DNA of 32,000 bases from Patescibacteria group bacterium (GTDB lineage: Bacteria; Patescibacteriota; Patescibacteriia; UBA2591; UBA6264): NCBI GenBank assembly GCA_028713575.1, contig JAQTOB010000004.1, positions 30,001 through 62,000 of the forward strand. The letters are read 5' to 3'. Below, piece after piece: positions 2,916-28,985 of the stretch (its first letter is position 1; the number at the start of each line of letters is the position of its first letter). A model generated the notes under the pieces. It did no database searches and was not told the DNA's origin. It saw only the letters and a list, made by a program, of their open reading frames with translations. The translations under genes and the position numbers were made by a program.

Positions 2916-2967
2916 GGTTTTTGGAGACCAGGTCTCCAAAAACCTTTTGGAGACCAGGTCTCCAAAA
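2916..2967. repeat. Tandem pair of perfect palindromes starting directly after the gatA stop; possible bidirectional terminator
   Basis: GGTTTTTGGAGACC-a-GGTCTCCAAAAACC spans 2916-2944 (14-bp arms). TTTTGGAGACC-a-GGTCTCCAAAA spans 2945-2967 (11-bp arms). The core GGAGACCAGGTCTCC repeats with a 26-bp period. Confidence 0.9.
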
Positions 2968-2969
2968 AA

Positions 2970-3029
2970 GGTATTCAAAAAATGGCTGCTAAAATTCTGT
3001 ATCTCGGAAAAATGCTGGAAAAAATATAG
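2970..3029 (+). pseudogene. Displaced, diverged copy of the last ~20 codons of gatA
   Basis: 2991-3024 (aaaattctgtatctcggaaaaatgctggaaaaaa) matches gatA 2871-2904 (aaaattctgcatctcggaaaaatgattgaaaaat) at 30 of 34 positions. The offset is exactly 120 bp and in the same frame. It encodes GIQKMAAKILYLGKMLEKI* versus gatA GNYFQESKILHLGKMIEKLGL*. Confidence 0.6.
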
Positions 3030-3030
3030 A

Positions 3031-3062
3031 AAAACGTACGGAACAAAGCTTTGTCGTTTTTT
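3031..3062. terminator. Hairpin plus T-run after the fossil gatA end (candidate original gatA terminator)
   Basis: AAAAACG (3031-3037) pairs with CGTTTTT (3055-3061) around the inner palindrome ACAAAGCTTTGT. The hairpin is followed by tttta. T-rich sequence flanks it on both strands. Confidence 0.35.
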
Positions 3063-3266
3063 ATCTATGCGCAAGTCCACCCATAGCATTACACCTGTCT
3101 GTTTGAGTAGACGAGAGGTTAAAAGGATAGCGGTCGCCGCCTTGGTATCGGCTACTCTGCCTACGGCGGGGCCTCGCACGTTGTTGACGTTTATCTCGAC
3201 CACTCCAACGACAACGGGGGCTTTCGGCTCGCGGTCGTGTTTAAAATCAAGTCCTGACCTTTGATT
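3063..3266. ncRNA. Unassigned GC-rich island, candidate structured RNA (strand unresolved, slight lean to minus)
   Basis: About 200 nt that is much more GC-rich than any neighbouring intergenic DNA. Both overlapping ORFs translate to implausible proteins. Several local hairpins are present. A long-range helix, read on the minus strand, pairs gagtggtcgaga with tctcgtctactc (11 of 12 positions pair; one of those is a G-U pair that would be a C-A mismatch on the plus strand). I could not match it from memory to RNase P, tmRNA, SRP or 6S RNA. Confidence 0.35.
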
Positions 3267-3457
3267 CCTAATTTCTAATTGATTTGGAGGACTGAGGACT
3301 GAAAACTGAAGACTAATTTTAGGGAGCATTAATGATAGATGGAGATGGCAATACTTTTTATTTCATTTATCCACATCCTTTGAATGAGCGGGTATGTTGA
3401 CAAAAATTTTGAAGACTATAAACTAAATAATATTAATTTGTAATTTATTTTATTCTT

Positions 3458-4480
3458 ATGGAAGAAGTAAAAAATTTAGAAATGGCGAAAAAGCCTTGCC
3501 GTTGTAAATTCGGCCTTTGGCAAATAATTGCCGCGATTTTACTTATTATTACTGTTGTTTCGGTTTTAACCGGAGGGTTTGGTTTAAAATTGTTCGGAGC
3601 TTCTCCTGATAAATTAGCCAAACAAACAGTAGAATTTATTAATCAATATTTATTACAGGCAGGCTCTACTGCTTCTTTGATTACCTCTGAATGTAATCAT
3701 AAAGTTTCTCTTTGTAAATTTAAAATTGATGTTTCTGGCGCCGAATATGATTCTTATGTGAGCAGTGACGGTCAAATACTTTTCCCCGACGCGATTGAAA
3801 TAGAGAAATTTAAAGAACAACAAATTTCGGCAAATCAGGAACAGCAGGTTTCTTTGGAGGATTTGCCCAGAGCTGAAAAACCCGAAGTAGACCTCTTTAT
3901 TATGTCCTATTGTCCTTATGGTTTGCAGGCGCAAAAGGCCATGTTGCCGGCAATGGATTTATTAAAGGATAAAGCGGATATTAAAATTCGTTTTGTTGAC
4001 TACATTATGCACGACAAACAGGAAATAGATGAAAATTTGAGGCAGTATTGTATTCAAAAGGAAGAACAGGAAAAATATACAGCTTATCTTAATTGTTTTG
4101 TAATTGCCGGTGAATTTGAAAAATGTTTAACCGAAGCGAAAATTAATAAAACAAAAATGAATAATTGTATTTCTCAAACAGATAAAGAATACAAAATTAG
4201 CGCCAATTATGAAGATAAGTCAACCTGGCTGAATGGAAATTATCCCGCTTTTAATGTGGAGGCGGATTTGAATGACCAATATAATGTTCAAGGTTCTCCC
4301 ACTTTAGTTATTAATGGACAAGAAATTAATGTTAATCGCACCCCTAATGATTACAAAGAAGCGATTTGTTTTGGCTTTGAATCAATGCCCGAAGAGTGCG
4401 CTCAAGAGCTTTCTGCCCAATCTTCAACGCCCAGTTTTGGTTTAGAGGCGGGAGAATCAACTGACGCTGAATGCCAATAA
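3458..4480 (+). CDS. Membrane-anchored thioredoxin-fold (DsbA/glutaredoxin-like) protein with a CPYG motif
   Basis: 340 aa with an N-terminal TM segment (WQIIAAILLIITVVSVLTGGF). The thioredoxin-like core includes DLFIMSYCPYGLQAQKAMLPAMDLL and a C-terminal GSPTLVINGQEI. The second Cys of the CxxC motif is replaced by Gly. Confidence 0.6.
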   Translation: MEEVKNLEMAKKPCRCKFGLWQIIAAILLIITVVSVLTGGFGLKLFGASPDKLAKQTVEFINQYLLQAGSTASLITSECNHKVSLCKFKIDVSGAEYDSYVSSDGQILFPDAIEIEKFKEQQISANQEQQVSLEDLPRAEKPEVDLFIMSYCPYGLQAQKAMLPAMDLLKDKADIKIRFVDYIMHDKQEIDENLRQYCIQKEEQEKYTAYLNCFVIAGEFEKCLTEAKINKTKMNNCISQTDKEYKISANYEDKSTWLNGNYPAFNVEADLNDQYNVQGSPTLVINGQEINVNRTPNDYKEAICFGFESMPEECAQELSAQSSTPSFGLEAGESTDAECQ

Positions 4481-4492
4481 ATAAATTTTAAA

Positions 4493-4720
4493 TTTTGGGG
4501 GCTGGGGTCTGACCCCCTAAACAGACCCCCCAAAACCATTATTAGATTTGCAAAGTAGAACGATTTTTCTAATTTGGTGCGATTTTGTTGAATTTATTAT
4601 ATCATACCACTACAACTTCTTGCAGGTCAGACCTGCAAGAAGTCTCTGCAAGAAGTACTGCAAGAAGTAGGGCAAAAATTTTGATTTGGTGTAATTTTGA
4701 CGGATTTTCATTTTTTTAAT
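4493..4720. repeat. Composite repeat after the thioredoxin-fold gene: two different palindromes, each followed by the shared AT-rich module
   Basis: GGGGTC-t-GACCCC at 4504-4516 is nested in TTTTGGGGG (4493-4501) / CCCCCCAAAA (4526-4535). A module tagaacgatttttctaatttggtgcgattttgttgaattt follows. CTTCTTGCAGGTC-a-GACCTGCAAGAAG spans 4616-4642 (13-bp arms), with the right arm ctgcaagaagt repeated three times (4633, 4646, 4658). A second module ttgatttggtgtaattttgacggatttt follows. Confidence 0.85.
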
Positions 4721-4797
4721 TTTAACTAAATTTATTTTGGTAATCTCTCAAAAAATTTAACCCAAGTTTTATTTTTTTGAGTTTATGTCTCTTAAAT

Positions 4798-5652
4798 ATG
4801 TTTGATTTGTTTTTTAATTTTTTACATAATTTTAAACCCCAGCCGATTATTTTACGGCTGGGATTTTTTAATGTCTATTGGTATAGTTTTTTAATTGTTT
4901 TGGGCCTTGTTTTAGGTTTGATTTTGGTTTTTAAATTGGCTCCGCGATTTAAAATAAAAAAAGAAAATTTGGAAGATTTGATTTTTTATTTAATTATTGC
5001 TGGTTTTATCGGCGCCAGGCTTTATCATGTTTTTTCCGAACTTCCTTATTATTTTAAAAATCCGTTAGATGTTTTTAAGGTTTGGAACGGAGGTTTGGGG
5101 ATTTACGGTGCGATTATCGCCGGTTTGCTTATTTTGTTTTTTTCCGCAAAAAAATATAAGATAAAATTTTTTGTTTTGGCTGATTTATTTGTGCCTGCTT
5201 TGGCTTTGGGTCAGGCTATTGGTCGCTGGGGAAATTATTTTAATCAGGAAGTTTTTGGCAGGCCGACTGATTTACCTTGGGGAATTTTTATTGAAGCGGC
5301 TAATCGGCCATTTGAGTTTTTTTCTGAACAGTATTTCCACCCGACTTTTTTATATGAATCAATCTGGAATTTTTTGATTTTTTTTGTTTTAATCTTAATG
5401 ATAAAATCTAATTTTTATAGAAATTTTTTTGGAGAAAATTTTTATGGAGGTCGGACCTCCAAAGAAAACCGTTCGGGTGTTATTTTTGGATTTTATCTTA
5501 TGTTTTATTCCTTCGGCCGGTTTTGGCTGGAGTTTATAAGAATTGATTCCCAACCAATGCTATTGGGACTGAGGCTGGCGCAGGTAATCTCAATTTTAAT
5601 GTTTATTGTCGGCGGAGTGATATTAATGAGAAAATATAAAATATTAGAATAA
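4798..5652 (+). CDS. lgt: Prolipoprotein diacylglyceryl transferase
   Basis: Lgt signatures GLGIYGAIIAGLL, GQAIGRWGNYFNQEVFGRPTDLPWGI and HPTFLYES. The ATG at 4798 is preferred over the TTG at 4777 given in the ORF track. Confidence 0.9.
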   Translation: MFDLFFNFLHNFKPQPIILRLGFFNVYWYSFLIVLGLVLGLILVFKLAPRFKIKKENLEDLIFYLIIAGFIGARLYHVFSELPYYFKNPLDVFKVWNGGLGIYGAIIAGLLILFFSAKKYKIKFFVLADLFVPALALGQAIGRWGNYFNQEVFGRPTDLPWGIFIEAANRPFEFFSEQYFHPTFLYESIWNFLIFFVLILMIKSNFYRNFFGENFYGGRTSKENRSGVIFGFYLMFYSFGRFWLEFIRIDSQPMLLGLRLAQVISILMFIVGGVILMRKYKILE

Positions 5653-5702
5653 AAGAGAATTTGTAATTTATGGTTATTTTTATGCTCCCATATTTTTATT
5701 TT

Positions 5703-6356: not shown

Positions 6357-6600
6357 CGGGGTTGTAAAAATAAGATTTTATAGTATAATGATAACATAAA
6401 ATATAAGAACATTAAAACGCCAGAACACTAGAATATAGTGACAGAAATACAATAACTAATTATTCTAATTATTCCAATGAATACCCAATTTCCAACCCCC
6501 AATGTCTAAAAATTTTTGGTCATTCAGTCATTGGTTATTGGGATTTTGTTAGGTCAATTAGAAATTAGGTTAATTAGGTTAATTTTATCTTATTTGTTCC

Positions 6601-6651
6601 AATGTTCCTATGTTATAATGTTCTAATGTTCTAATATTAAAATGATTTATT
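6601..6651 (+). repeat. Array of 8-bp units (AATGTTCT type) running into the pilM start codon
   Basis: The register is aatgttcc|tatgttat|aatgttct|aatgttct|aatattaa|aatgattt|att-ATG. An inverted partner array lies at about 6397-6430, on the comFC side of the same intergenic region. Confidence 0.7.
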
Positions 6652-8587: not shown

Positions 8588-8623
8588 AATGTTAAGATGT
8601 TAGAATGTTAAAATGATTTTTGT
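8588..8623 (+). repeat. Second 8-bp-unit array, running into the start of the pilO-like gene
   Basis: The register is aatgttaa|gatgttag|aatgttaa|aatgattt|ttgt-ATG. It ends with the same AATGATTT unit as the pilM array. Confidence 0.7.
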
Positions 8624-9181: not shown

Positions 9182-9182
9182 T

Positions 9183-12480: not shown

Positions 12481-13195
12481 ATAATTAGATAATTGGGGTC
12501 GGAGATAATTGGGGTCTGACCCCATGAGCATCCCTTCTGAGATAATTGGGGTCTGACCCCATGAGTATCCCTTCTAAAACATACATGATAATTGGGGTCT
12601 GATAATTGGGGTCTGACCCCATGAGCATCCCTTCTAAAACATACATCAATAAAGGATTATAGAACGAAAATTTCAATTTGGCGCGATTTTGATTGATTTC
12701 CAATAATTTTTTATCAAAACAACGATTTTTGACACTAATTTTGGGGTCTACACTAATTTTGGGGTCTGACCCCATGAGCATCCCCTCTAAAACATACATC
12801 AATAAAGGATTATAGAACGAAAATTTCAATTTGGTGTGATTTTGATTGATTTCCAATCACTAATTTTGGGGTCTGACCCCATGAGCATCCCTTCTAAAAC
12901 ATACATCAATAAAGGATTATAGAACGAAAATTTCAATTTGGTGTGATTTTGATTGATTTCCAATAATTTTTTATTAAAACAACGATTTTAATTGAAAATT
13001 GATAATTATTTAATTTACATTTAATCACTAATTTTGGGGTCTGACCCCATGAGTATCCCTTCTAAAACATACATCAATAAAGGATTATAGAACGAAAATT
13101 TCAATTTGGTGCGATTTTGATTGATTTCCAATAATTTTTTAACAAAACAACGATTTTAATTGAAAATTGATAATTATTTAATTTACATTTTGCAT
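12481..13195. repeat. Array of composite repeat units (GGGGTCTGACCCC hairpin, body, shared AT-rich module, tail) filling the pilT-pilC gap
   Basis: Long units start at 12601, 12751, 12858 and 13026 (107 to about 170 bp, near-identical). Head-only or truncated copies start at 12488, 12504, 12541, 12587 and 12733. Confidence 0.95.
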
Positions 13196-17342: not shown

Positions 17343-18500
17343 ATGAAATTTTTTAACTTAACTCCCAAAATCAATCTTTCTAAAGATTTTAAAATGCTTT
17401 GCCTTTATCAAACCATTATTGCTTTGGCTGACGGTATGATCGGTTTATTTTTGCCGATTTTTTTATTTGAAAAATTAAATCAATCAATTTATCCGGTGAT
17501 TATTTTTTACGCTACCGGTTATTTGCTTTACGGCCTTTTAGTGCCTTTGGGCGCCATTTTAATGAATAAAATCGGCTTGGAAAAATCAATTCTCTGGGGC
17601 CGTTTTTTTACCATTCCCTTTTATCTTTGTTTGTTTTTTTTGAAAAATAATCCTTGGGTTTTTCTTGTTTTGGCCGGTTTGTTTTTGTTGTTTTTTCGCC
17701 TTCTTTACTGGGTGCCTTATCATGTTGATTTTGTTAGTTTTACCGAAGGCAGATATCGCGGTCGGCAAATGGCTTATTTGGCTATTTTGGGTTACCTTGT
17801 TGCCATTGGCGCGCCCTTGTTGTCTGGATTTTTGCTTAATAGCTTTAGTTTTGAATTTGTTTTTCTGTTAGTAATAATTATTTTAATAATTTCTTTGATT
17901 CCTTTAAAAAAATTAAATGACACTCAGGCCAATTTTCAATTTTCTTATTTGCAAACATTTAAGGAATTATTTAAAAAGCAAAATAGGTCAGCCTCTTTGG
18001 CTTATTTGGCTGACGGCGGACAAAATATGATTGGCGTTGTTATTTGGCCGCTTTTTATCTACCAAATTTTGGAAAAGCAATACTTGGCCTTGGGCGCGGT
18101 GGCCGCCTTAATTACAATTGGAACCGTCCTTTGCCGTTTGTTAATCGGCAGTTATACTGACAAGTATTCAAAAAAGAAACTTTTAAAAATCGGGTCCTTT
18201 TTTTACGCTTTAGGCTGGCTGGCAAAGTCATTGGTGGAAACCGCTTTTCAGATTTTTATTATCGGCACTTTTCACAGTTTTATGTCCATTATTATGCGTT
18301 CGCCCCTGGATGCTTTGACTTACGAAAGAATTTCCGTTCGCGATTCTTATATTGACGAATATACGGTTTTGCGCGAGATAAGCGTTAGCTTGGGTTATTT
18401 TTTAATGGGAATGATTGTTTTGCTTTTAGTCGGATTGGTTGGCCTTAAAATTACTTTTTTAGTCGCGGCTTTTTGTAGCTTATTTGTCAATAAATTATAA
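17343..18500 (+). CDS. MFS-type transporter
   Basis: 385 aa with about 10-12 hydrophobic helices in two halves separated by a basic loop (KKLNDTQANFQ..KKQNR). This is MFS-like topology. The substrate is unknown. Confidence 0.6.
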   Translation: MKFFNLTPKINLSKDFKMLCLYQTIIALADGMIGLFLPIFLFEKLNQSIYPVIIFYATGYLLYGLLVPLGAILMNKIGLEKSILWGRFFTIPFYLCLFFLKNNPWVFLVLAGLFLLFFRLLYWVPYHVDFVSFTEGRYRGRQMAYLAILGYLVAIGAPLLSGFLLNSFSFEFVFLLVIIILIISLIPLKKLNDTQANFQFSYLQTFKELFKKQNRSASLAYLADGGQNMIGVVIWPLFIYQILEKQYLALGAVAALITIGTVLCRLLIGSYTDKYSKKKLLKIGSFFYALGWLAKSLVETAFQIFIIGTFHSFMSIIMRSPLDALTYERISVRDSYIDEYTVLREISVSLGYFLMGMIVLLLVGLVGLKITFLVAAFCSLFVNKL

Positions 18501-18503
18501 TTT

Positions 18504-19049
18504 ATGCCGCCCAAATTATTGCTTCATGTTTGTTGCGCCAATTGCGGAATAGTTCCCATTGAATTACTAAGAGACCGGTTTGACCTGACTTTATTTTGGT
18601 ATAATCCGAATATTTATCCCCGAACAGAATATCAAAAACGCTTGGCAGATGTTAAAAAATTAGTTAAAATATATAAAAAGGATTTGATTGTTGAAAACAA
18701 TGATATTAAAAAGTGGTTTGAAATTACCAAAGAGCTGGAAAACGAGCCAGAAGGGGGTAAAAGGTGCGAAAAATGTTTTCAAATGCGATTAAGCCGAACC
18801 GCGCGGTTAGCCAAAGAAAAAAGTTTTGATTTTTTTGCCACTACTTTAAGTGTCGGACCGCAGAAAAGGGCGAAAATAATTAATAAATTGGGAGAAAAAT
18901 TGGCGAAAGAATGCGATTTGAAATTTTACCCGGCGGATTTTAAAAAACAAGATGGATTTAAAAAAAGCGTTGAACTGAGCAAAAAATACGGGTTTTACCG
19001 CCAGCACTATTGCGGTTGCGTCTTTAGCATTAGAACGTCAAAACATTAA
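18504..19049 (+). CDS. queH: Epoxyqueuosine reductase QueH (DUF208)
   Basis: LLLHVCCANCG, WYNPNIYP, KRCEKCFQMRL and YRQHYCGCVFS match the QueH cysteine motifs. Confidence 0.85.
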   Translation: MPPKLLLHVCCANCGIVPIELLRDRFDLTLFWYNPNIYPRTEYQKRLADVKKLVKIYKKDLIVENNDIKKWFEITKELENEPEGGKRCEKCFQMRLSRTARLAKEKSFDFFATTLSVGPQKRAKIINKLGEKLAKECDLKFYPADFKKQDGFKKSVELSKKYGFYRQHYCGCVFSIRTSKH

Positions 19050-19052
19050 AAC

Positions 19053-19409
19053 ATGAAAACAAGTAGTTTTAAAGAAAATTTAAAAAAGAAAATGGATGAA
19101 TATGTTCATTTTGTTTATAAAATTACTCTTAATTTTCCTAAAGCGGAAATATATGGAACTGTTTCTCAATTAAGAAGGGCGTCTTTGTCGGTGGTTTTAA
19201 ATTATATAGAAGGATTTGCCAGAAGAAAGAGACTTGTTCAATTGAATTTTTTAGAAATTTCTTACGGGTCGTTAAAAGAATCAAAATATCTTTTACATTT
19301 TGCTTTGATTGAAAATTATTTGGACACAAAAGACTATAAAATTGCTTTAAAAATGGCAGAAGAAATCGGAGCTATGCTTTGGACAGAAATATCTAATTTA
19401 GATAAATAA
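19053..19409 (+). CDS. Four-helix-bundle protein (23S rRNA intervening-sequence protein family)
   Basis: 118 aa. The motif SQLRRASLSVVLNYIEGFARR and the later SLKESKYLLHFA are typical of this family. Confidence 0.7.
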   Translation: MKTSSFKENLKKKMDEYVHFVYKITLNFPKAEIYGTVSQLRRASLSVVLNYIEGFARRKRLVQLNFLEISYGSLKESKYLLHFALIENYLDTKDYKIALKMAEEIGAMLWTEISNLDK

Positions 19410-19450
19410 TTAATTGTTTTTTAGCCAAAGGCTGATCCGTCTCCGACGGA

Positions 19451-19515
19451 AATGTTCTAATGTTCTAGTGTTTTAATGTTTTAATGTTTTTATGTTTTTA
19501 TGTTTTTATGTTTTT
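19451..19515 (+). repeat. Third 8-bp-unit array (8 units), ending at the ATG of the next ORF
   Basis: The register is aatgttct|aatgttct|agtgtttt|aatgtttt|aatgtttt|tatgtttt|tatgtttt|tatgtttt|t-ATG. Confidence 0.8.
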
Positions 19516-19860
19516 ATGAATCCTAATAAATGGGAAAATTTAATATTTATGGCTGAGGAAAAATTTGGTTTAGACAAGAAATACATGGAAGATTTTGAGG
19601 TTTCCGAACTTTCTACGGGCGAGAAAATTATGGGCCAAAAAGAAATTGTGGAATTTAAGAGTCCTTTGGGTCGGATAAAGTTAGAAAAAACTTCCCGGCC
19701 AAAAGTCATTGATAAAAAAGTTTTACACACCAAGAGAATTGGCGGCAGAACCGCCATTGATTTCGTTTATTCGCCGGACGAAAGAGTTGAAGAGCTTAAA
19801 ATTTATAAAGAAAATAAAGAAGGGGAATGGGAAGAGTTAACGGCATTGAAGGAATTTTAA
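19516..19860 (+). CDS. Hypothetical protein
   Basis: The ORF track starts at 19492, inside the 8-mer array. The in-frame ATG at 19516 (MNPNKWENLIF...) is the first one outside the array. No family was recognised. Confidence 0.45.
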   Translation: MNPNKWENLIFMAEEKFGLDKKYMEDFEVSELSTGEKIMGQKEIVEFKSPLGRIKLEKTSRPKVIDKKVLHTKRIGGRTAIDFVYSPDERVEELKIYKENKEGEWEELTALKEF

Positions 19861-19872
19861 TTTTTATTTTTT

Positions 19873-20550
19873 ATGAATAAGTCTTATTTTTATTTGCCGG
19901 CTATTTTTTGTTTAATTCTTTTTTTTATTTTTAAATTTCCTTCCGTTAAAGCAATAATTATTGGTTATGATTTGATTTTAGTTTTAACCATTTTTTTAGT
20001 TTTTTTCTTGATTAAAAAGAAGATAAAAACCCGCTGGATGTTTTTGGCTCAAAGCGCGGTTTTTGTTTTAAGCGGTCTGGGATTTTTCCTTTTTGTCGCC
20101 GATGTCTTTTGGCAATTTGTTTTCGGCCTGATTTTTATTCTCGGCTTGGGCTATTTTTTCTTTCATATTTTTAAATTATTTAATCAGCCCCGTATTTGCC
20201 AGCCGGATGCTTTGGAAAAAATGAGTTTTTGGCAAAATTTCATTATTATTTATTGGACTTTAAGCGTGATTGGCGCCACTCTCGGAGTTAATCCTTTAAA
20301 TTGGCGATTTTTTTCCGCTTTGCCTTTGGTTTTTCTTCTGTTTTATTGGTTGGGTTATTATTCTTTTTATCTTAAATCAGGAGAGCTCAAATTGATTAAA
20401 ATTGATTTGTTAATCATTGGTTTGGTTTTGACGGAAATTCATTTAGCCATAAATTTTTTGCCCTTAGGTTTTTATCTAAACGCTTTGATAATTTCTTCAT
20501 TATATGGTATAATTATTAACATATGGCAAAAGATAAAGAGTTTTGTTTAA
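19873..20550 (+). CDS. Multi-pass membrane protein (function unknown)
   Basis: 225 aa with about 6-7 hydrophobic helices. No motif was recognised. Confidence 0.5.
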   Translation: MNKSYFYLPAIFCLILFFIFKFPSVKAIIIGYDLILVLTIFLVFFLIKKKIKTRWMFLAQSAVFVLSGLGFFLFVADVFWQFVFGLIFILGLGYFFFHIFKLFNQPRICQPDALEKMSFWQNFIIIYWTLSVIGATLGVNPLNWRFFSALPLVFLLFYWLGYYSFYLKSGELKLIKIDLLIIGLVLTEIHLAINFLPLGFYLNALIISSLYGIIINIWQKIKSFV

Positions 20551-20675
20551 AATTTGGAGCCGCCAGTTGGCGGGGAACAAATTTTAGAAACAAAACCTTT
20601 ACCCCGCCCCCATTTTTTCTAAATTTTCTATAATATCCGACTATGTAGTATTATGTATATGTTCTACAAGATAAA

Positions 20676-20879
20676 TTGACAAAAGAGATATACATTGGTT
20701 ATAGCGAAAATTTAATTTCTAGAGCCAAAGACCACCAAAAGCAAAATAAAAATTGGGTACTTGTCTACTACGAAGCTTATCAATCAGAAAAAGCTGTTCA
20801 AGAAAGAGAAAAAAGATTGAAATATTATGGTACCTCGCTTTCTAATTTAAAACGTCGTATTAAAGATTGCTTTTTCTGA
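20676..20879 (+). CDS. Small GIY-YIG nuclease-domain protein; start unresolved and possibly a pseudogene
   Basis: EIYIGYSENLISRAKDH followed by WVLVYYEAYQSEKAVQEREKRLK is the GIY-YIG/URI fold. The conserved first strand YYVYVL is encoded in frame upstream (20649-20666), but between it and the only upstream ATG (20643) lies a TAG (20646). Confidence 0.6.
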   Translation: MTKEIYIGYSENLISRAKDHQKQNKNWVLVYYEAYQSEKAVQEREKRLKYYGTSLSNLKRRIKDCFF

Positions 20880-21017
20880 GAAAAAATGGGGGCTGGGTGC
20901 TCATAATTATAACGAAATTATTTCCCCAGCACATAATGGATTTTCTAAAAAAAGAATATCAATATTATTATGAAATTAAAATAAGATAATCAAAACTCAG
21001 CATAGCGCCATATATTT

Positions 21018-22301
21018 ATGTGCTGGGTCATAATTTTGATAATTATGGTAAAAAAAATTGATATCACCGATGATTTAGAAGAAAAAGAAGTGGAAATAAA
21101 AAAAAGCGAGAGGTTGAACGCTTTGGAAAACCGCCAAAACAAAGCAGAGAAAAAAATCTCGGAATTTTATCAGAACAAAGAGTTTTCTTTTGAAAAGCCC
21201 AAAGCTTCAACCAAGGGCCTTGTTTGGCTGATTATTATTTGGTCAATTGTTTTCGGTTTGGCTGGTGGCACTTTGGCCAGTTATTTTATGTTGACGCGCG
21301 AAAGCATTAACATTCCTTTTTTGAATAAAGAAATTAAATTAAATAAAATTTTTTCTCCCAAGGAGGTTAATACGGTAACGGAAAAAAATGTTACGGTTCT
21401 GGCCGAAACCAGAATGGCGGAATTAGTTGATGATTTATTTGTTAAAACCGTTAGAATTTTTAAAACCAAAACTCAAGACCAAACAAGTTTTTTAGAGCAG
21501 ATTTATGCTCCTTGGCAGGCCTTGGGAATCGGCGCTTTCGTCAGTCCTAATGGTTGGCTAATTACTGCTTATAACTTTGAGCCGGAGACAGATTATGTGG
21601 TCGTTGATTATAAAAATAATATTTTAAGCATTGAAAAAATAATCAGTGACCCAATCACTGATTTGAGTTTTTACAAAATCAATCAGGAAGAATCCCCCTT
21701 TTTTGAATTAGAAGAAAAAAAAGGAATAATCCCGGGTCAGCAAGCGATTATTTCGGACAAATTGCAGAATGTTCATTTAACTGCCATCAGTCAACCTTTG
21801 ACTAGAAACATTTTTAAAACCGAAGATTTGGTTTATTCCAGTGACAAATTTTCCGAATTTATGCGCTTGGAGTTTTCTGAGGTCGCTTTTCCCCAAAGTT
21901 TAATTTTCGGCTTAAACGGTAAACTTTTGGGATTTATTTCGCAAAAAGCCGTTCCGGCGTGGCAAGTGAGAGCTTTAATTGACCAGGTAGTGGCCACGGG
22001 TGAGATTAAGCGGCCGTTTTTGGGCATTGATTATTTAAGAATAGACCAAGCTCCCGGCTTAACCAGTCCCCGTTTTAAAGATTTGAACCAAGGGCTGATT
22101 GTTTATGGCTCGCCTTTGGCAAATAGTCCGGCAGAAAAGGCCGGGATTAAAAACGCGGATGTGATTGTTAAAATAGACGGCCAAATTATTGACAAAAATA
22201 TTGACTTGACTGAATTGGTTTTACAGAAGATACCTCAAGAAATGGAAATAACGGTTTTAAGAGAAGGAGAGCAAATAATTTTAAAAGTTGTCTTAGAATA
22301 A
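21018..22301 (+). CDS. Membrane-anchored HtrA/DegP-like protein with C-terminal PDZ domain and a degenerate catalytic triad
   Basis: It has a TM (LVWLIIIWSIVFGLAGGTLASYFML), a trypsin-like core alignable to HtrA (GIGAFVSPNGWLITAYNF, DLSFYKI, LIFGLNGKLLGFIS) and a PDZ domain (GLIVYGSPLANSPAEKAGIKNADVIVKIDGQII). The start is either ATG 21018 or ATG 21045. Confidence 0.7.
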   Translation: MCWVIILIIMVKKIDITDDLEEKEVEIKKSERLNALENRQNKAEKKISEFYQNKEFSFEKPKASTKGLVWLIIIWSIVFGLAGGTLASYFMLTRESINIPFLNKEIKLNKIFSPKEVNTVTEKNVTVLAETRMAELVDDLFVKTVRIFKTKTQDQTSFLEQIYAPWQALGIGAFVSPNGWLITAYNFEPETDYVVVDYKNNILSIEKIISDPITDLSFYKINQEESPFFELEEKKGIIPGQQAIISDKLQNVHLTAISQPLTRNIFKTEDLVYSSDKFSEFMRLEFSEVAFPQSLIFGLNGKLLGFISQKAVPAWQVRALIDQVVATGEIKRPFLGIDYLRIDQAPGLTSPRFKDLNQGLIVYGSPLANSPAEKAGIKNADVIVKIDGQIIDKNIDLTELVLQKIPQEMEITVLREGEQIILKVVLE

Positions 22302-22500
22302 AAAAGTGATAAAAGTGATAAAAGTGATATGAAAAATTTACTTAAGAGCAAGACTTCTAAGTAGTTTTTTTGTAAAAAGTTTTTCACAGGAGGTTTTAAA
22401 AAATAAAAATAAGTGATATAATACAATCAAGATATATAAAAAAATAGCATTTTATAAAATGAGTCATTAAAGAGAAAAAATAAATTTAATTTAAAATTTT

Positions 22501-25500
22501 ATGAAAATCAAAAACAAAATTTTTAGGAGGGTGAAACAAAAAATCACAAAAATTATTTTTGTTTTTTTAATGGTCGCGACGATGACGGGGAGTTTAACTA
22601 ACATTGCTCAAGCTTATTTATTAGACGCGGTTGATTTGTTAGGACAAATGGACACTTTAGACGAACCGATTTATACGCGAAGCACGCAAAACAATCCTTA
22701 TAGTACCATAGTCAGCAATGCGGTTTTCAACGGCGCGGAAGATGTGAAAATTGATACAGTTCATCACCGTTTATTCGTCGCCGACCGCAGTAACAATAGG
22801 GTTTTAGTTTATGATTTGGACGAAAATAATCAATTTGAACATTATGCCGCTGATTATGTTTTGGGTCAGCCGGATTTTACCACGGTCAGCGCCGGCACCA
22901 CGCAGAGCAAATTCAACGCTTCAAGATATATCGCCTATGATTCCAATCATCAGCGTTTGTTTGTTTCCGAAGAAGAAAATAAACGGGTAACGGTCTTTGA
23001 TTTATCCGAAGGAGTTACCACTGGTATGGACGCTTCTTATGTTCTTGGTCAGCCGGATTTCACCACCAGCGACACTACCACCACTTTATTTGGTTTTGAT
23101 TATTGTTGGGGACTGGCTTATGACTTAGATAATGATTATTTGTATGTGGCTGACGGATCTTCCCATAATCGTATTTTAATTTTTGATGTTGCCCCCGAAG
23201 AAATGTATAACTATAAACCGGCCTTTGCTCATTTGGGCTCTTTGATCGGCACTGCTTTGGACGATTCTCATTTTGAGGGTCCCCATGGCTTGGTTTTGGA
23301 CAAGACCAATGATATTTTATATGCGACCGACACCGACCATCATAGAATAATGATTTTTGATACAGAAGAAATTATCAATGGAGAAAGCGCGATTAATGTC
23401 CTTGGTCAATTAAATTTTACTTCAGATAGCACCAGCACTAGCAGCGTGGGTATGAATTACCCTTATAATGTTGATTTTGATGGAGTTGATGAGCGTTTAT
23501 TTGTTGCTGACGCTACCAATCATCGCGTAATGGTTTTTGACGTTTCTGGGGGAGTGACAGATGGCATGGAAGCCTCTTATGTTTTGGGTCAGATTGATTT
23601 TGACGCCAACAGTTCTGGCGCGACCCAATCTAAATTTAATAAGCCTCGCGGCGTGGCCTATAATTCCGTTACCAAAGAATTATATGTCGGCGATTCAGGC
23701 AATAATCGGATAATGGTTTTTGATTTATCCCAAGGTATTACTAACGGCATGAACGCTTCCAAACTTTTAGGACATACCACGCGCGGCGGCGTGCCGAATT
23801 GGACTTTTACCACTGCCAATCAAATGGGAGCACCTATTGACGACATCGGTTTGCACACGCCCGATAAAGTCCATTTTGATTCTGTCGGGCACCGTTTGTT
23901 CCAATCAGACCAGAACAATAGCCGTATCTTGGTTTATAATTTGGATGAAAATAATAATTTAATTGACCATGTTGCGGATTATGTGATTGGCAGAGATGAT
24001 TTTTTTACCGGCGGCTCGGACAATACCGGTGGCGGTCAAGCCGCTTTTAAATGGCAACATAATTCAATTCTTGATTCCGGGCGTCAGCGTTTATTCGTTT
24101 CTGATTCTTATAATAACCGGATTATGGTTTTTGACATTTCCGAAGGCATCGCCAACGGCATGAATGCGGCTTATGTTCTTGGTCAACCGGATTTTACTTC
24201 TTATGATGCGATTACTACCATTAGTGGCGTTAACGGGCCTCGCGGTTTTGCTTTTGATTCAAGCACTGACCGTTTATTTGTTGCCGACCGCAATAATCAT
24301 CGGGTTTTGGTTTATGATGTGGCGGAAATTGAAACCGGCGAAGACGCAATCAATGTTTTGGGCCAGTCCGACTTCACTAGCAACTCCGCAACCACTAGTA
24401 TCAGTGGCATGGACTATCCTTATGATTTAGCTTTGGACCAAACCAATCAACGTTTATTTGTTATTGACAAGAACAACAACCGAGTGGTTGTTTATGATGT
24501 GGCGGAAATTACTAACGGCGAAGACGCGGTGGCGGTTCTGGGTCAAGCTGATTTTAATTCTAAAATTGATACCGTTGAAGATGTTGAACAAAGGATTCAA
24601 ACCCAAGATAGATTATTTAACACCAGGGGAGTGGCTTATGATTCGGTTAATAATTGGTTATTTGTCGTGGAATACGCCGGTCATCGGGTAATGGTATTTG
24701 ATGTCACGGAAATTGAAAACGGCGAGCCGGCAATCAATGTTTTAGGAGACGAAACTTTTAATACGACTCTTTTGGAAACAATTGATGCCAATGAAAATAC
24801 GAATCGGGTCGCGACTGCCAGCAATTTTTGGACGCCCGAGACAGCGGAAATAGACGGAACCAATAGAAAATTATATGTTAGCGACCAAAATCATAACCGG
24901 ACCATGATTTTCCAATTGCCCAAAATTACGACTGCTTCATTAAGTAATGGCACTGTAGGCGAAGTTTATAGTCAAACAATTTCCGGTACTGGCGGCGCTG
25001 AGCCCTATGTTTGTTCTTTGGTCTCAGGCACTTTGCCCACTGGTTTATCCTTAAACGCTAATTGCACTATTACCGGCGCGCCATCAGCGGCCGGAACAGC
25101 CAATAATCTTGTTATTCGTTTTTCTGACAGTTCAATTACTTCGCCGGAAACAGTCGGCTTATGGCACAACAAAACTTTTAGTTTAACTGTTGACGAGTCT
25201 TTGGCTAACATTAAAATTTCAGCCAAAGCCGAATTAACCGCGGCCTTGGCGACTTATAATCAGGAGGATTACACCGAAGAAAACTGGACAGGTCTAAATA
25301 CTTATAAAACCGATGGCGACACAGCTATTGATGATGCCGAAGATACAGCCGGAGTTACAACAGCTAAAAATACGGCTATCAATGGAATGGCCGGAGTGGA
25401 AACCATTGCTCAAACACTTAAAACAATTACTGCTTTTTCTGTTCCTAATCAAGTTGGCGCGTCAACGATTAATCAAACCGACAAGACAATCAAATTAGTG

Positions 25501-27243
25501 GTTCCGTTTGGCACAGATGTTACTGACCTTGTGGCGTCTTTTACTACTACTGGCGCCTTGGTTAAAGTTAGCGGAGCAACACAAACCAGCGGTCAAACCG
25601 CTAATGATTTCACAAATTCTTTAATTTATACTGTTTCCGCCGTCAATGAGACAACACAGAATTATACGGTTAGTGTCACGGTCTTGACTAATACGCAAAC
25701 CGCCATAGATGATGAGGGCGCTGTTACCATTGATAACAGCACGCCTCAGGCGGTTATTATTAATCCAACTCAGGCAGTCACTGTTGATATTGCCGAAGAC
25801 ACGGAAGGCCCGAGCATTGATGTTAGTTCATTTATTAGTGCCGGAACAGGAACCATTCCTCAAATTACTATTACAGCCGCGAACGCGAATAATGTTAATG
25901 TAGCCATTCCCGCCTCCACCACTGTGACCAGTGCTGATTCGGCTTGGGATGGAGTAATTGCCGCGCCAGTCGTGACCACGGTCACTTTGCCCAATACTTC
26001 AGGAGAAATGAAAACATTAAGCACAGCCATTGAAGTCGGATTCTCCGGTGCCAAATTATCTTTTGATAAGGCGGTTAGGCTATTATTGCCGAACCAAGCG
26101 GGGAAAAGAGTAGGTTACATTAGAACAGGAATTGATTTTACGGAAATAACTTCGGTTTGTGACGCAGACAGCCAAGCGGTTGGCGACCTCTTGTCCGCTG
26201 ACGGTGAATGTAAAAAAGATGTGGGCAATGATTTAGTTGTCTGGACAAAACATTTTACTTCCTTTGCCACTTTTAGCGCGGTTCCTTTGTCTAGTGGCGG
26301 AGGAGGCGGCAGCGCTCCTGTTTTAGTGGGCCCCTCTGATTTAAGTTTAAAAATAAATAATGATGCATTGGAAACTTTTTCAAGAAATGTTGTTTTAAAT
26401 ATTAATGCCGCTAATGCCACGGAAATGTTAGTCGGCGATACTGTTGATTTTGCCAATGTTGATTGGGAAGAGTATGCGAGTTTGAAAAATTGGACCTTAA
26501 CTTCTGGCAATGGAGAAAAAATAATTTATATTAAATTTAGAGACAGCAGTCACAATGAATCTTCTGTAGTTTCCGACACGATTATATTAGAAGAAGAAAT
26601 AGTTGCGGTTGGCGAGGGAAGCTTGGTTAAAACTGCTGATTCTACTGCTTTGTATTTGATTCTTAATGCCAAGCGTCATGTTTTTCCGCACTTGGCCGTT
26701 TATCATTCCTGGTCTTATCCAAATGATTTTTCCACTGTTAAAACAATTACTACTGTTGAATTAAATCAATATCCGGAAGGCGATGCCGTTCCTTTCCGCG
26801 ACGGCTCAATGTTCAGGGGCACGACCCAATCCTTGTATGGTAAATCCGCTTCTGCTGTTTTTTATGTAGAAGACGGGAAATTAAGAGCAGTTAAATCAGG
26901 AGAAATTTATCAGACACTTTTTAATGACCCGAATTGGTCATTAGTCACTTGGGTTCCGGACGACTTGTTGGCCAAGTTTAATTATGAATTGTCTAATGAT
27001 TTAGATTCGTCAGATATCCATCCCAATGGTTCTTTGGTTAAATACCCTGATGCTCCTGCGGTTTACCTGATTAAAAATGGCAAAAAGCAACCCTTTTCTT
27101 CTTGGGACATTTTCGTCGCTAACGGTTATAGTCAAAGGAAGATTTTTGTCATTTCGGCTGAAGAGACCTATGAAACAGCAGAAATAATCAGCAGTTTAGC
27201 CGAATCCCTGACTACGCCAGTCATTGCTGCGATGTATCAATAG
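22501..27243 (+). CDS. Giant secreted surface protein: 12 NHL-type beta-propeller blades, Ig-like and other beta-sandwich domains, and a C-terminal ~190-aa domain shared with the S-layer-like protein
   Basis: 1580 aa with a signal peptide (..VATMTGSLTNIAQA). There are 12 repeats of the pattern hRLFVxDxxNNRvhVaDh followed by YVLGQPDFTS. A cadherin/Ig-like segment (GTVGEVYSQTISGTGGAEPYVCSLVSGTLPTGLSL) follows, then further beta-sandwich-like segments and a Gly linker (SSGGGGGS). Confidence 0.85.
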   Translation: MKIKNKIFRRVKQKITKIIFVFLMVATMTGSLTNIAQAYLLDAVDLLGQMDTLDEPIYTRSTQNNPYSTIVSNAVFNGAEDVKIDTVHHRLFVADRSNNRVLVYDLDENNQFEHYAADYVLGQPDFTTVSAGTTQSKFNASRYIAYDSNHQRLFVSEEENKRVTVFDLSEGVTTGMDASYVLGQPDFTTSDTTTTLFGFDYCWGLAYDLDNDYLYVADGSSHNRILIFDVAPEEMYNYKPAFAHLGSLIGTALDDSHFEGPHGLVLDKTNDILYATDTDHHRIMIFDTEEIINGESAINVLGQLNFTSDSTSTSSVGMNYPYNVDFDGVDERLFVADATNHRVMVFDVSGGVTDGMEASYVLGQIDFDANSSGATQSKFNKPRGVAYNSVTKELYVGDSGNNRIMVFDLSQGITNGMNASKLLGHTTRGGVPNWTFTTANQMGAPIDDIGLHTPDKVHFDSVGHRLFQSDQNNSRILVYNLDENNNLIDHVADYVIGRDDFFTGGSDNTGGGQAAFKWQHNSILDSGRQRLFVSDSYNNRIMVFDISEGIANGMNAAYVLGQPDFTSYDAITTISGVNGPRGFAFDSSTDRLFVADRNNHRVLVYDVAEIETGEDAINVLGQSDFTSNSATTSISGMDYPYDLALDQTNQRLFVIDKNNNRVVVYDVAEITNGEDAVAVLGQADFNSKIDTVEDVEQRIQTQDRLFNTRGVAYDSVNNWLFVVEYAGHRVMVFDVTEIENGEPAINVLGDETFNTTLLETIDANENTNRVATASNFWTPETAEIDGTNRKLYVSDQNHNRTMIFQLPKITTASLSNGTVGEVYSQTISGTGGAEPYVCSLVSGTLPTGLSLNANCTITGAPSAAGTANNLVIRFSDSSITSPETVGLWHNKTFSLTVDESLANIKISAKAELTAALATYNQEDYTEENWTGLNTYKTDGDTAIDDAEDTAGVTTAKNTAINGMAGVETIAQTLKTITAFSVPNQVGASTINQTDKTIKLVVPFGTDVTDLVASFTTTGALVKVSGATQTSGQTANDFTNSLIYTVSAVNETTQNYTVSVTVLTNTQTAIDDEGAVTIDNSTPQAVIINPTQAVTVDIAEDTEGPSIDVSSFISAGTGTIPQITITAANANNVNVAIPASTTVTSADSAWDGVIAAPVVTTVTLPNTSGEMKTLSTAIEVGFSGAKLSFDKAVRLLLPNQAGKRVGYIRTGIDFTEITSVCDADSQAVGDLLSADGECKKDVGNDLVVWTKHFTSFATFSAVPLSSGGGGGSAPVLVGPSDLSLKINNDALETFSRNVVLNINAANATEMLVGDTVDFANVDWEEYASLKNWTLTSGNGEKIIYIKFRDSSHNESSVVSDTIILEEEIVAVGEGSLVKTADSTALYLILNAKRHVFPHLAVYHSWSYPNDFSTVKTITTVELNQYPEGDAVPFRDGSMFRGTTQSLYGKSASAVFYVEDGKLRAVKSGEIYQTLFNDPNWSLVTWVPDDLLAKFNYELSNDLDSSDIHPNGSLVKYPDAPAVYLIKNGKKQPFSSWDIFVANGYSQRKIFVISAEETYETAEIISSLAESLTTPVIAAMYQ

Positions 27244-27264
27244 AATTAAGCCGAAATTCGGTTT

Positions 27265-27840
27265 AAATAAAGAAAAGTCCTCCTATTTTTGAGGGGGTCT
27301 TTTCTTTGTTTTGAGACTCGGTTTCCCGTTGGAAACCGAGTCTCTTCACTTCTTGGTTGTTTTGAGACTCGGTTTCCCGTTGGAAACCGAGTCTCTTCAC
27401 TTCTTGGCTTCCTGTTTAAAGTTCGGTTTCCCGCTTTGCTTCGTAGCGAGCTTTGCTCTGCTACTGGGGCTGGAAGCCGAACTTCTTTATTTTATAAAAA
27501 GCCACTTGGTCTTTAAAGTCCTCCTATTTTTGAGGGGGTCTTTTCTTTGTTTTGAGACTCGGTTTCCCGTTGGAAACCGAGTCTCTTCACTTCTTGGCTT
27601 TGATACTTTGGCGCAATCCCTGATTATGCCGGCTATGGCCGATTTAGCGCAATAAAGCTTCTATTATATATACACTTTGTTTTGAGACTCGGTTTCCCGT
27701 TGGAAACCGAGTCTCTTCACTTCTTGGCTTCCTGTTTAAAGTTCGGTTTCCCGCTTTGCTTCGTAGCGAGCTTTGCTCTGCTACTGGGGCTGGAAGCCGA
27801 ACTTCTTTATTTTATAAAAAGCCACTTGGTCTTTAAAGCC
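27265..27840. repeat. Composite repeat block after the giant gene
   Basis: The ~50-bp unit gttttgagactcggtttcccgttggaaaccgagtctcttcacttcttgg occurs four times (27308, 27358, 27548, 27678). The ~110-bp unit cttcctgtttaaagttcggtttccc...gccacttggtctttaaag occurs twice (27407, 27728). The unit tcctcctatttttgagggggtcttttctttg occurs twice (27278, 27518). Confidence 0.95.
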
Positions 27841-27938
27841 TTTTTTATAGGGAGGTTTGACCCCTTCCTCTTGTTATAAATATTATAAATGTTATAATAA
27901 TTTTCTACTATTTTCGTAAAATTTTCGTATTTCGTAGC

Positions 27939-28469
27939 ATGTTCCACCTCAGAGAGAAAATCCTTTTTCATCAAATTAAAAACGGTGACGAACAGGCCTT
28001 CACCGTCTTTTATAATACCTATAAAGACAGAATTTATCGTTTTATTTATTTTAAAGTTTCTGATCGTGAAAAAGTTTATGATTTGGTTTCCGAAGTTTTT
28101 ATTAAAATATATGATTATATTAAAGAGGGGAATGACATTGATAATTTTCAAGCTTTTTTGTATAAAATCGCTCGTAATTTAGTAATAGATTTTTATCGCA
28201 CTAAAAAAGAGGAAATTTCTTTAACTGATGCGCCGGAAACAGTTTCTCCTATCAATTTAGAAAAAGAAGTGGGAGATAAGGTTGCCGTGGAAAACGTCAA
28301 AAGATACCTTAATAAAATTAAACCAGAATACCGCGAAGCGGTTCATCTTCATTTTTTTGAAAATTTTTCTTTTTCCGAGATTGCGGATATTATCAATCAA
28401 TCCGAAGGCAATGTTAGGATTAGGGTTTATCGCGGCATTAAGCAATTAAAAGAGGTTTTAAGGGGTTGA
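27939..28469 (+). CDS. ECF-type RNA polymerase sigma factor (sigma-70 family)
   Basis: 176 aa with region 2 (YKDRIYRFIYFKVSDREKVYDLVSEVFIKIY, FQAFLYKIARNLVIDFYR) and region 4 (EYREAVHLHFFENFSFSEIADIINQSEGNVRIRVYRGIKQLKE). Confidence 0.9.
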   Translation: MFHLREKILFHQIKNGDEQAFTVFYNTYKDRIYRFIYFKVSDREKVYDLVSEVFIKIYDYIKEGNDIDNFQAFLYKIARNLVIDFYRTKKEEISLTDAPETVSPINLEKEVGDKVAVENVKRYLNKIKPEYREAVHLHFFENFSFSEIADIINQSEGNVRIRVYRGIKQLKEVLRG

Positions 28470-28985
28470 ACCCCTTCTATATGTAGGGGTTCAACCCCCT
28501 CCCCAATAATCGCCATCATAAACTTTTTACACAGGAACTTTTTACACATTTTTACACAGGACATTTTTACACAGGTTGAACCTGTGTAAATTTTCATTTG
28601 CATATTTCACAAAACAAATCCAAAATCCAAAACCCAAATTTTCATAATCACTTGGGAACCGAGTTTCTAAAAAGCAAGAAAGCAAGAGATGGATTCTACG
28701 CTAGAAACTCGGTTTCCCGTTGGAAACCGAGTTTCCTTCTCCCCAATAATCGCCATCATAAACTTTTTACACAGGAACTTTTTACACATTTTTATACAGC
28801 ACATTTTTACACAGCACATTTTTATACATTTTTACACAGGTTGAACCTGTGTAAATTTTCATTTGCATATTTCACAAAACAAATCCAAAATCCAAAACCC
28901 AAATTTTCATAATCACTTGGGAACCGAGTTCCTAAAAAGACATTTTTACACAGGTTGAACCTGTGTAAATTTTCATTTGGCATTT
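28462..28985. repeat. Composite repeat block between the sigma and anti-sigma genes
   Basis: GGGGTT-g-AACCCC at 28462-28474 overlaps the sigma stop codon, and GGGGTT-c-AACCCC lies at 28486-28498. A ~170-200-bp unit (ctccccaataatcgccatcataaac ... cacttgggaaccgag) occurs twice (28498, 28738), plus a partial third copy at 28940. The palindrome TTTACACAGGTT-g-AACCTGTGTAAA occurs three times. Confidence 0.95.

Follow-up and report, generated by a model that had tools for sequence, protein, structure and literature searches.

We analysed a 32,000-nucleotide stretch of DNA from a Patescibacteria group bacterium (GenBank assembly GCA_028713575.1, contig JAQTOB010000004.1, positions 30,001 to 62,000; hereafter the window), in which several families of GC-rich perfect palindromes, here named A to F, lie at gene ends and, in one case, in frame within the gene lgt. 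With a probability that we put at roughly 0.7, these palindromes are repetitive extragenic palindromic (REP)-type repeats of a Patescibacteria clade of Y1 HUH transposases that resemble the REP-associated tyrosine transposases (RAYTs). The initial annotation, which had considered the palindromes substrates of a REP/RAYT-type enzyme and had seen no gene for such an enzyme in the window, proved largely right: no Y1 or HUH open reading frame (ORF) was found inside the window, nor in the pil-operon loci of relatives, and Y1 genes associated with palindromes of the window type are located just outside both of its ends.

The neighbouring genes were read from JGI contig Ga0378408_0000398 (98.8 kb), examined as two pieces (L001 and L067), which matches the window at 98.6-99.6% identity in the 14.2 kb that were aligned (window positions 17802-32000). 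RAYT-1 (L001:16763-17479, 238 residues) starts about 2.5 kb past the window end, and RAYT-3 (L067:7064-7723, 219 residues) lies immediately upstream of ligA and ends about 1.3 kb short of the window; the two proteins are 34% identical. Both score above the cutoff of 23 bits for the Pfam family Y1_Tnp (PF01797), with 30.1 bits for RAYT-1 and 34.6 bits for RAYT-3. RAYT-1 has the HUH motif NHYH (NHYHFIL) and the tyrosine motif YINLN (SAYINLN), the corresponding motifs of RAYT-3 are NHFH and YIHFHNP, and in an alignment of 85 sequences H89 and Y147 are invariant. Because sequence-only searches of the PDB, either with the protein or with a 14-sequence profile, gave no match, fold comparison was needed. 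An AlphaFold model of the RAYT-1 orthologue P0003, based on the 85-sequence alignment (pLDDT 85.8), had as its top PDB match 4ER8 (E = 6.7e-6), which is the E. coli RAYT with a bound REP hairpin, followed by 2VJV, 2A6M and 2XMA (TnpA of IS608 and ISDra2); disorder in the model is confined to the loop that the palindrome encodes.

Four family D palindromes (TTTGGAGACC-a/t-GGTCTCCAAA) are found within 360 nt upstream of RAYT-1, and two more lie in frame within the gene, encoding FGDQVSK and FGDLVSK ((EDFGDL)x2-VSK). This is the same palindrome that occurs at window positions 2914-2967, about 32 kb away. Upstream of RAYT-3 there is TTTTCTTTTTGGCAGGTGA|TCACCTGCCAAAAAGAAAA, followed by ever shorter right arms and finally by bare CCAAAA words, and downstream of it TTGGAAGGTG-ag-CACCTTCCAA with a partial arm. 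In the approximately 60 kb of this genome that were read, there are about 45 palindrome copies and two divergent RAYT genes. The gene order DUF5667, a protein of about 1240 residues, RAYT is the same in L001 and in L016, whose RAYT-1 orthologue is 67% identical, and these conserved neighbours fit the pattern of a vertically inherited, domesticated RAYT.

The clade is large, with more than 3000 homologues at 90% clustering; among the matches listed, all named taxa belong to Patescibacteria or the candidate phyla radiation (CPR), and a few homologues carry the JGI label RayT. Ten further loci from seven other genomes were examined (L010-L017 and L061-L063, with a second paralogue on L015/L017), including a third paralogue type, RAYT-2 (31% identical). 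In all ten loci, a genome-specific palindrome lies 20-60 nt before the gene, shortly after it, or in both places, and in nine of the ten it is also present in frame within the gene; L011 has a copy 8 kb off, and L062 has four upstream copies.

The in-gene copies are recognized in the proteins as the pattern [F/L][G/R]-x1-x2-x3-[S/P/T/A][K/Q] in two variable segments, one before the HUH motif and the other after the tyrosine motif, and the palindrome occupies these two fixed in-frame positions in more than 80% of 120 homologues. Among the latter, codons x1 and x3 are reverse complements of each other in 104 of 110 cases at site 1 and in 95 of 96 at site 2 (about 95-99%, against a null of about 50%), and identical arm codons are present at both sites in 63 of 85 proteins, with a null mean of 14. 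Compensatory arm change, as suspected in the initial annotation, and concerted change of the in-gene copies are therefore directly shown. What is conserved across genomes is the outer stem, or foot, namely TTTGG..CCAAA for RAYT-1 and RAYT-3 and GTCTGTCG..CGACAGAC for RAYT-2, whereas the inner 4-6 nt and the centre of the transposase-linked palindromes vary between genomes. Each paralogue has palindromes of its own, those of RAYT-3 being of the TTGG[C/A]AGGTG types, which in full read TTGG-[C/A]AGGTG-NN-CACCT[G/T]-CCAA.

A full enumeration of perfect hairpins in the window (Table 1) recovered all palindromes named in the initial annotation, at or a few bases from where it had placed them, including the four copies of family E plus a variant and the three copies of family C. 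The array at 12.5-13.1 kb is indeed repetitive, but the seven or more full copies attributed to it are six full copies and three partial left arms. Palindromes with arms of at least 10 nt number 12, against 0.8 +/- 0.7 in 60 dinucleotide-preserving shuffles, and those with a 1-nt centre and at least four G/C per arm number 17 (10 distinct sequences), against 1.2 +/- 1.1 in the same shuffles. A shared apex had also been claimed, and it is real, since GGTCNGACC occurs 10 times at five independent loci (0.12 expected) and GGTTNAACC five times (0.62 expected); this apex, GGTY-N-RACC, is common to families A, B, C and F and to the lgt and gatA copies, and is also present in genomes L004 and L011. 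In the enzyme-linked families, however, the conserved part is the foot and not the apex. The gatA palindrome may be a chance match, because chance alone should yield about three palindromes with 7-nt arms for each loop size. According to single-stranded DNA folding predictions, the units form stable hairpins (z-scores from -2.4 to -7.5), the family D doublet folding into one long hairpin of -24 kcal/mol (z = -7.5).

Table 1. Positions of palindromes and other repeats in the window (numbered from its first letter) and in the pilT-pilC spacers of relatives
Feature	Position	Description
Palindrome inside gatA, TTTGGTC-c-GACCAAA	1893-1907	Foot TTTGG..CCAAA; supplies one GGTCNGACC match
Family D doublet	2914-2967	TTTTGGAGACC-a-GGTCTCCAAAA twice, 26-nt period; overlaps gatA stop codon
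Family D members	2914-2946; 2945-2967	AAGGTTTTTGGAGACC-a-GGTCTCCAAAAACCTT; TTTTGGAGACC-a-GGTCTCCAAAA
Family A, single palindrome GGGGTC-t-GACCCC	4504-4516	3' of ORF 3458-4480
T/G-rich 40-nt module (TAGAACGATTTTTCTAATTTGGTGCGATTTTGTTGAATTT)	4556-4595	Plus strand; diverged second copy at 4668-4707
Family B	4615-4669	ACTTCTTGCAGGTC-a-GACCTGCAAGAAGT (4615-4643), then partial right arm CTGCAAGAAGT twice
In-frame REP-like insertion in lgt	5410-5461	Three AATTTTTATGGAG-like partial left arms, then palindrome; encodes NFYRNFFGENFYGGRTSK
Palindrome in lgt	5445	TGGAGGTC-g-GACCTCCA
Family A array between pilT and pilC	12490-13157	Six full TGGGGTC-t-GACCCCA, three partial left arms, four module copies
Full copies in family A array	12510, 12547, 12607, 12760, 12867, 13035	
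Family E	27313-27807	GAGACTCGGTTTCC-cgtt-GGAAACCGAGTCTC, four copies: 27313, 27364, 27554, 27684
Family E, 70-nt hairpins	27418-27487; 27738-27807	E-like stem AAAGTTCGGTTTCC..GGAAGCCGAACTT, about 40 nt inserted in loop
Family F pair	28460-28498	AAGGGGTT-g-AACCCCTT at 28460; GGGGTT-c-AACCCC at 28486
Family C arrays	28521-28969	TTTACACAGGTT-g-AACCTGTGTAAA, three copies: 28566, 28831, 28945
Within family C arrays	28704-28735; 28616-28640; 28881-28905	E variant (first range); CCAAA-foot runs (second and third); also half-arms GGGAACCGAGTTYC
pilT-pilC spacer element	L007:2860-2950	Hairpin and three partial left arms (TTTGTCATCCCG..)
pilT-pilC spacer element	L005:1057-1077	Palindrome TTGAGAGGC-cga-GCCTCTCAA
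pilT-pilC spacer element	L008:2990-3400	Small inserted gene between ATTCGTA repeats
Start-codon tandem repeat	1223-1246	CATTAAAG x3
Start-codon tandem repeat	6595-6635	AATGTTCT x5
Start-codon tandem repeat	8588-8615	AATGTTAA x3.5
Start-codon tandem repeat	19451-19518	AATGTTTT x8.5
Start-codon tandem repeat	22302-22329	AAAAGTGAT x3
Start-codon tandem repeat	28974-29032	CATTTGA x8.7

The palindromes do not constitute a single family; at least two or three enzyme-specific families coexist. Family D is the palindrome of RAYT-1, and the lgt copy (TGGAGGTC-g-GACCTCCAAA), which differs from family D by two compensated pairs, is a close variant of the RAYT-1 palindrome TTTGG-AGACC-N-GGTCT-CCAAA. Its peptide GGRTSK is identical to that encoded by the in-gene palindrome of the RAYT-1 homologues P0046 and P0065, and at the insertion site E. 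coli Lgt (5AZB) is shorter by about 10 residues. Family A (TTGGGGTC-t-GACCCCA), which has the foot TTGG..CCA and is one base pair per arm off the lgt type, is probably another close variant of the RAYT-1 palindrome. Families F and A are one compensated pair apart, and so are the cores of B (CAGGTC-a-GACCTG) and C (CAGGTT-g-AACCTG). The family B core CAGGT..ACCTG resembles the RAYT-3 flanks TTTGGCAGGTGA|TCACCTGCCAAA and TTGGAAGGTG-ag-CACCTTCCAA, the B and C cores alike being similar to CAGGTGA|TCACCTG and AAGGTG-ag-CACCTT, and family E is unlike the palindromes of both RAYT-1 and RAYT-3. Assignment of A and B to RAYT-2, in which the loop is often x-S-D-x, was rejected, given that the DNA of three RAYT-2 loci shows the foot GTCTGTCG, which is absent from A and B.

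A search of 240 RAYT homologues for in-frame peptides matched only the lgt type (GGRTSK) and the D type (FGDLVSK), and none specific to A, B, C, E or F was found; the E-frame words GNRVS and NRVSK did match homologues, but they belong to a RAYT-1-type palindrome. When metagenomes were scanned for family A with the 19-mer TGGGGTCTGACCCCATGAG, only one contig of this species was recovered; 42 of the 43 matches were in contigs unlike the window, 40 of these 42 with a GC content of 47-70%, and none was near a CPR-type RAYT. The unrelated contigs (within L018-L060) often have several GGGTCTGACCC copies each, some of them behind TTGAYAC-like boxes.

The 40-nt module TAGAACGAAAATTTCAATTTGGTGYGATTTTGATTGATTT is genuinely repeated: two loci together contain six copies. 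It had been reported in both orientations, a claim that was not borne out: the opposite-strand sequence aaatccaaaatccaaaacccaaatt aligned to it with a local score of 20, which was reached or exceeded in 56 of 1000 shuffles, and unrelated spacers score as well. A better description of both is that they consist of repeated stem-foot words, TTTGG and CCAAA, and to judge from the graded series at RAYT-3, the "modules" rich in T/G or CCAAA would be runs of arm feet that have decayed. An Rfam scan of the repeat regions at permissive thresholds returned only models of eukaryotic microRNA hairpins, all below threshold.

Near-identical strains differ in partial arms and in array blocks, and therefore these loci are actively changing. 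In the family D cluster, four strains with an identical GatA protein have four different arrangements of partial arms, distinguished by insertions of left arms, for example ttttggagacct, ggtttttggagacca and taaggtttttggag. The blocks of the family E array (E, the E palindrome; T, L and X, other blocks) follow the order T-E-E-L-T-E-X-E-L in the window, T-E-E-E-X-E-L in L001 and T-E-E-L in L002 and L003. The unit made of C, a CCAAA run and the E variant is present in one or two copies, the number differing among the window, L001 and L002, and the palindrome upstream of RAYT-3 differs between L067 and L068 in its centre (at vs ct) and in the number of arms. The pilT-pilC spacer, which is 755 nt long in the window, measures only 30-190 nt in four relatives at 69-83% protein identity, where it has either different palindromes or none at all; in L008 it includes an inserted gene and reaches about 530 nt. 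The contig of L042 breaks at the family A array. Direct copies of the neighbouring arm stand beside a full palindrome in about 14 cases, from at least five genomes, and break off at the centre or 1-3 nt before it. Within the window, the partial left arms of the family A array stop at the centre base, in units of 37, 107 or 168 nt, and two of the three copies of family C are preceded by 2-4 partial left arms (TTTTTACACAGG). Some of the block change is certainly due to recombination and slippage between copies.

The family F copy AAGGGGTT-g-AACCCCTT includes the stop codon of the extracytoplasmic function (ECF) sigma factor gene. Downstream of the D palindromes there is a diverged copy of the gatA 3' end (2870-2905 vs 2990-3025, 32 of 36 nt), which would encode AAKILYLGKMLEKI*, and the ORF for an NHL-repeat protein shows a weaker end duplication inside the E array (27194-27217 vs 27606-27629), which suggests that palindrome-bounded duplications carry gene ends along. 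A 141-residue ORF on the minus strand (2904-3329), annotated as a gene in L064 and L067, has a C-terminus that runs through the D palindromes (..FGDLVSK..); it covers an unusually GC-rich stretch (3040-3330) and has no Pfam or Rfam match. The loop insert of the 70-nt hairpins of family E contains GTAGCGAGC-ttt-GCTCTGCTAC, a short, imperfect hairpin whose ends read GTAG..CTAC.

From what is described for IS608 TnpA and E. coli TnpA_REP (PMC3333891, PMC3479197), we infer that the RAYTs are catalytically active and would act at the replication fork, on hairpins that extrude from single-stranded DNA. The enzyme would bind the hairpin via its conserved paired foot, and cut and rejoin single strands at the element or close to it. 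Many such events, along with recombination among the copies, could then place copies at gene ends and, in frame, in tolerant gene loops, add or remove single arms beside a full palindrome, and enlarge or shrink tandem blocks. Compensated arm changes would preserve the hairpin, and the copies would evolve in concert with those inside the transposase gene.

The clustering of breakpoints at the apex suggests that the apex itself could be the site of breakage, as partial arms end no more than 1-3 nt from the centre and the E-like stem has about 40 nt in its loop. Such action, which we consider doubtful, would be unlike that of known enzymes, and the contrast it would imply with IS608 and E. coli TnpA_REP, which cleave on the foot side, is equally tentative. 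The same reserve holds for the broader picture of a phylum-wide clade that keeps its own hairpin at two in-frame sites, recognizes the foot instead of a GTAG tag, and breaks and joins DNA at the apex. If a clade of this kind did exist, tiny genomes would gain from it hypervariable gene ends and promoter-proximal arrays.

Several points weigh against an assignment to REP and RAYT. The canonical unpaired 5' GT[AG]G tag is missing, no GTAG or GTGG being adjacent to any palindrome family, and scores for the NCBIfam model REP_Tyr_transpos (NF047646) are 23.9, 33.7 and 17.7 bits, below its cutoff of 80. Families A, E and F flank no transposase gene in the part of this genome that was read, and what relates B and C to RAYT-3 is the likeness of the core CAGGT..ACCTG. 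Recognition of the foot leaves the enriched GGTY-N-RACC apex unexplained, no enzyme being tied to the apex, and it is by analogy that we infer both cleavage and its position. In addition, growth and shrinkage of the arrays could be due to ordinary recombination or slippage without any enzyme, and some copies, notably those of family C, also look like bidirectional intrinsic terminators.

An origin that requires no enzyme, through quasi-palindrome template switching, slippage and unequal recombination, with the RAYT-like genes merely carrying or attracting such sequences, would account for the perfect palindromes, as from templated correction, for the exact tandem duplication of short stretches, as with the 14-nt taaggtttttggag in L064, and for the array changes by whole blocks in a genome that is rich in other short tandem repeats. 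We nevertheless regard it as unlikely, because it leaves unexplained why each RAYT lineage has a specific foot conserved across genomes, why palindromes occupy two fixed in-frame sites in most homologues and change together with the flanking copies, and why identical palindromes are found at unlinked loci.

It also seems improbable that the palindromes are ordinary lineage-specific terminators, or mRNA-stabilising hairpins after stop codons, whose proximity to transposase genes is incidental. Every cluster lies 3' of a plus-strand gene, D and F overlap stop codons, family C has T-runs on both strands and was found by a terminator scan, and family E comes after a T-run hairpin; however, most copies lack a T-run, up to six of them stand in tandem, and copies lie in frame in lgt and in the transposase genes, the palindrome beside the RAYT gene matching the in-gene one in nine of ten loci of other genomes. 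Family C probably serves secondarily as a terminator, a function that E. coli REPs can also have, and the other families may do so too.

The succession of several direct arms and one inverted arm is reminiscent of operators or iterons near promoters, that is, of binding sites for a regulator or a partition-type protein; several RAYT genes have the palindrome across part of their promoter region, and a perfect sigma-70 promoter (TTGACA, 18 nt, TATAAT) is found at 29024-29053, right after the C array. Since arms differ between loci of one genome, copies occur within coding regions, and the only gene consistently linked is that of the Y1 transposase, with no DNA-binding regulator gene linked, this explanation is very unlikely. 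Over-represented motifs related to DNA uptake or methylation are scarcely credible: the organism has type IV pili, with pilM, pilO, pilB, pilT and pilC in the window, the GGTCNGACC core is enriched and, in Neisseria, inverted pairs of uptake sequences follow genes, but one conserved word in hundreds of copies would be needed, whereas the arms differ and share a core of only 4+4 nt, and no link to uptake or methylase genes was seen. A reading of the units as miniature inverted-repeat transposable elements, with two abutted terminal inverted repeats, was discarded, as neither target-site duplications nor unit ends were found in its support.

Regarded as REP-type repeats and their transposases, the palindromes and the Y1 genes form a system that works like a REPtron, although it lacks the GT[AG]G tag, scores below the NCBIfam cutoff and has motifs nearest to those of subclass 2.1. 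Like the REPtrons of Proteobacteria, it consists of a Y1 HUH gene flanked by palindromes that are also scattered in intergenic regions (E. coli YafM, 4ER8; PMC2817692, PMC3333891, PMC3479197), with one palindrome family per paralogue, an apparently vertical gene and 4ER8 as the best fold match. Canonical REPs have an unpaired 5' GT[AG]G guide tetranucleotide at the hairpin foot (PMC6006769), whereas the palindromes described here are perfect, mostly with a 1-nt centre, and have the paired foot TTGG..CCAA in place of an unpaired tag. The tyrosine motif also differs, being YINLN[H/Y/D] or YIHFHNP and not Y...NP, as do the sub-cutoff NCBIfam score and the host phylum.

Within the TnpA_Y1 classification, subclass 2.4 has "double-foot" REPs and REPs in frame within tnpA_REP (Quentin et al. 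2018, PMC6006769), and it shares with the present system symmetric palindromes and frame-preserving copies in a peripheral loop of its own gene. Here, however, there are two fixed sites, before the HUH and after the tyrosine motif, which are occupied in most of the 120 homologues and are shared by paralogues only 31% identical, and the motifs are NHYH, FQ and YINLNH instead of the NH[IFV]H, WQ and YIxNNP of subclass 2.4. The closest motifs, NH[YF]H, FQ and Y[IV]xLN, are those of the TIRYT/TIRtron subclass 2.1 (Di Nocera et al. 2013, PMC3733652), which is also similar in its length of about 240 residues, its helical C-terminal extension, and its clustered non-GTAG repeats that can be self-complementary. 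The minus strand of family A (GGGGTCAG), a family which flanks no gene, fits the TIRYT consensus GGGGWSAS, whereas the gene-flanking family D does not contain it. Other differences are that the tyrosine motif lacks the P of Y[IV]HLNP, that the flanks are compact palindromes and not long terminal inverted repeats, and that in-gene copies are not described for TIRYT.

As with REPINs (Bertels and Rainey 2011, PMC3116915), the family D doublet folds like a REP dimer, and an evolving population of copies accompanies a single-copy RAYT, but the copies here are mostly singletons or direct tandem arrays, and no head-to-head pair is needed because each unit is already a perfect palindrome. The in-frame insertions in loops of housekeeping proteins (Lgt and possibly GatA) are similar to Rickettsia palindromic elements and other intragenic REPs, from which they differ in being much shorter (about 20-50 nt) and in being tied to an identifiable transposase family. 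With IS200/IS605 elements, the system shares the catalytic fold (matches to 2VJV and 2XMA) and hairpin substrates; unlike them, it lacks multiple identical copies of the gene and the imperfect hairpins of distinct left and right ends, its flanks contain no tnpB, and its chromosomal contexts are conserved.

Patescibacteria have genomes of about 1 Mb and are thought to have few mobile elements. To our knowledge, REPs and RAYTs have been studied almost solely in Proteobacteria and Cyanobacteria, and our literature search found no paper tying RAYT or REP to Patescibacteria. A large, apparently vertical RAYT-like clade with atypical, perfectly symmetric substrates would shape intergenic regions, rewrite gene 3' ends, add peptides to housekeeping proteins and make strains that are otherwise 99% identical differ. 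The in-gene copies offer ready covariation data, in which the protein sequence reveals the substrate, and could show how Y1 enzymes read hairpins. The repeats also account for contig breaks in CPR assemblies and for spurious ORF calls over arrays.

The window has a GC content of 35%, with almost every gene on the plus strand. Its genes are ligA (3' end), gatC, gatA, lgt, pilM, pilO, pilB, pilT, pilC and fpg, followed by genes for an MFS transporter, QueH, an Avd-like protein, a 1580-residue NHL-repeat protein, an ECF sigma factor and a DUF5667 protein; two tRNAs are the sole Rfam matches at gathering score, and the relatives identified through PilC are metagenome-assembled genomes of Patescibacteria. 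The sigma-70 promoter at 29024-29053 lies upstream of the DUF5667 gene, which comes after the ECF sigma factor gene. Tandem repeats of 7-9 nt that lie immediately upstream of start codons or span them (Table 1) look like a second, unrelated class of promoter-proximal repeats.

Finally, a reverse transcriptase gene adjoins the gene for a 1263-residue Laminin_G_3 protein about 6 kb upstream of the window (L067:1356-6731), the Avd-like gene (23S_rRNA_IVP/bAvd) is located within the window at 19053-19409, and at L061:8210-10759 a RAYT-2 gene directly follows a pair of reverse transcriptase and bAvd genes, which together suggests possible parts of diversity-generating retroelements near RAYT genes.

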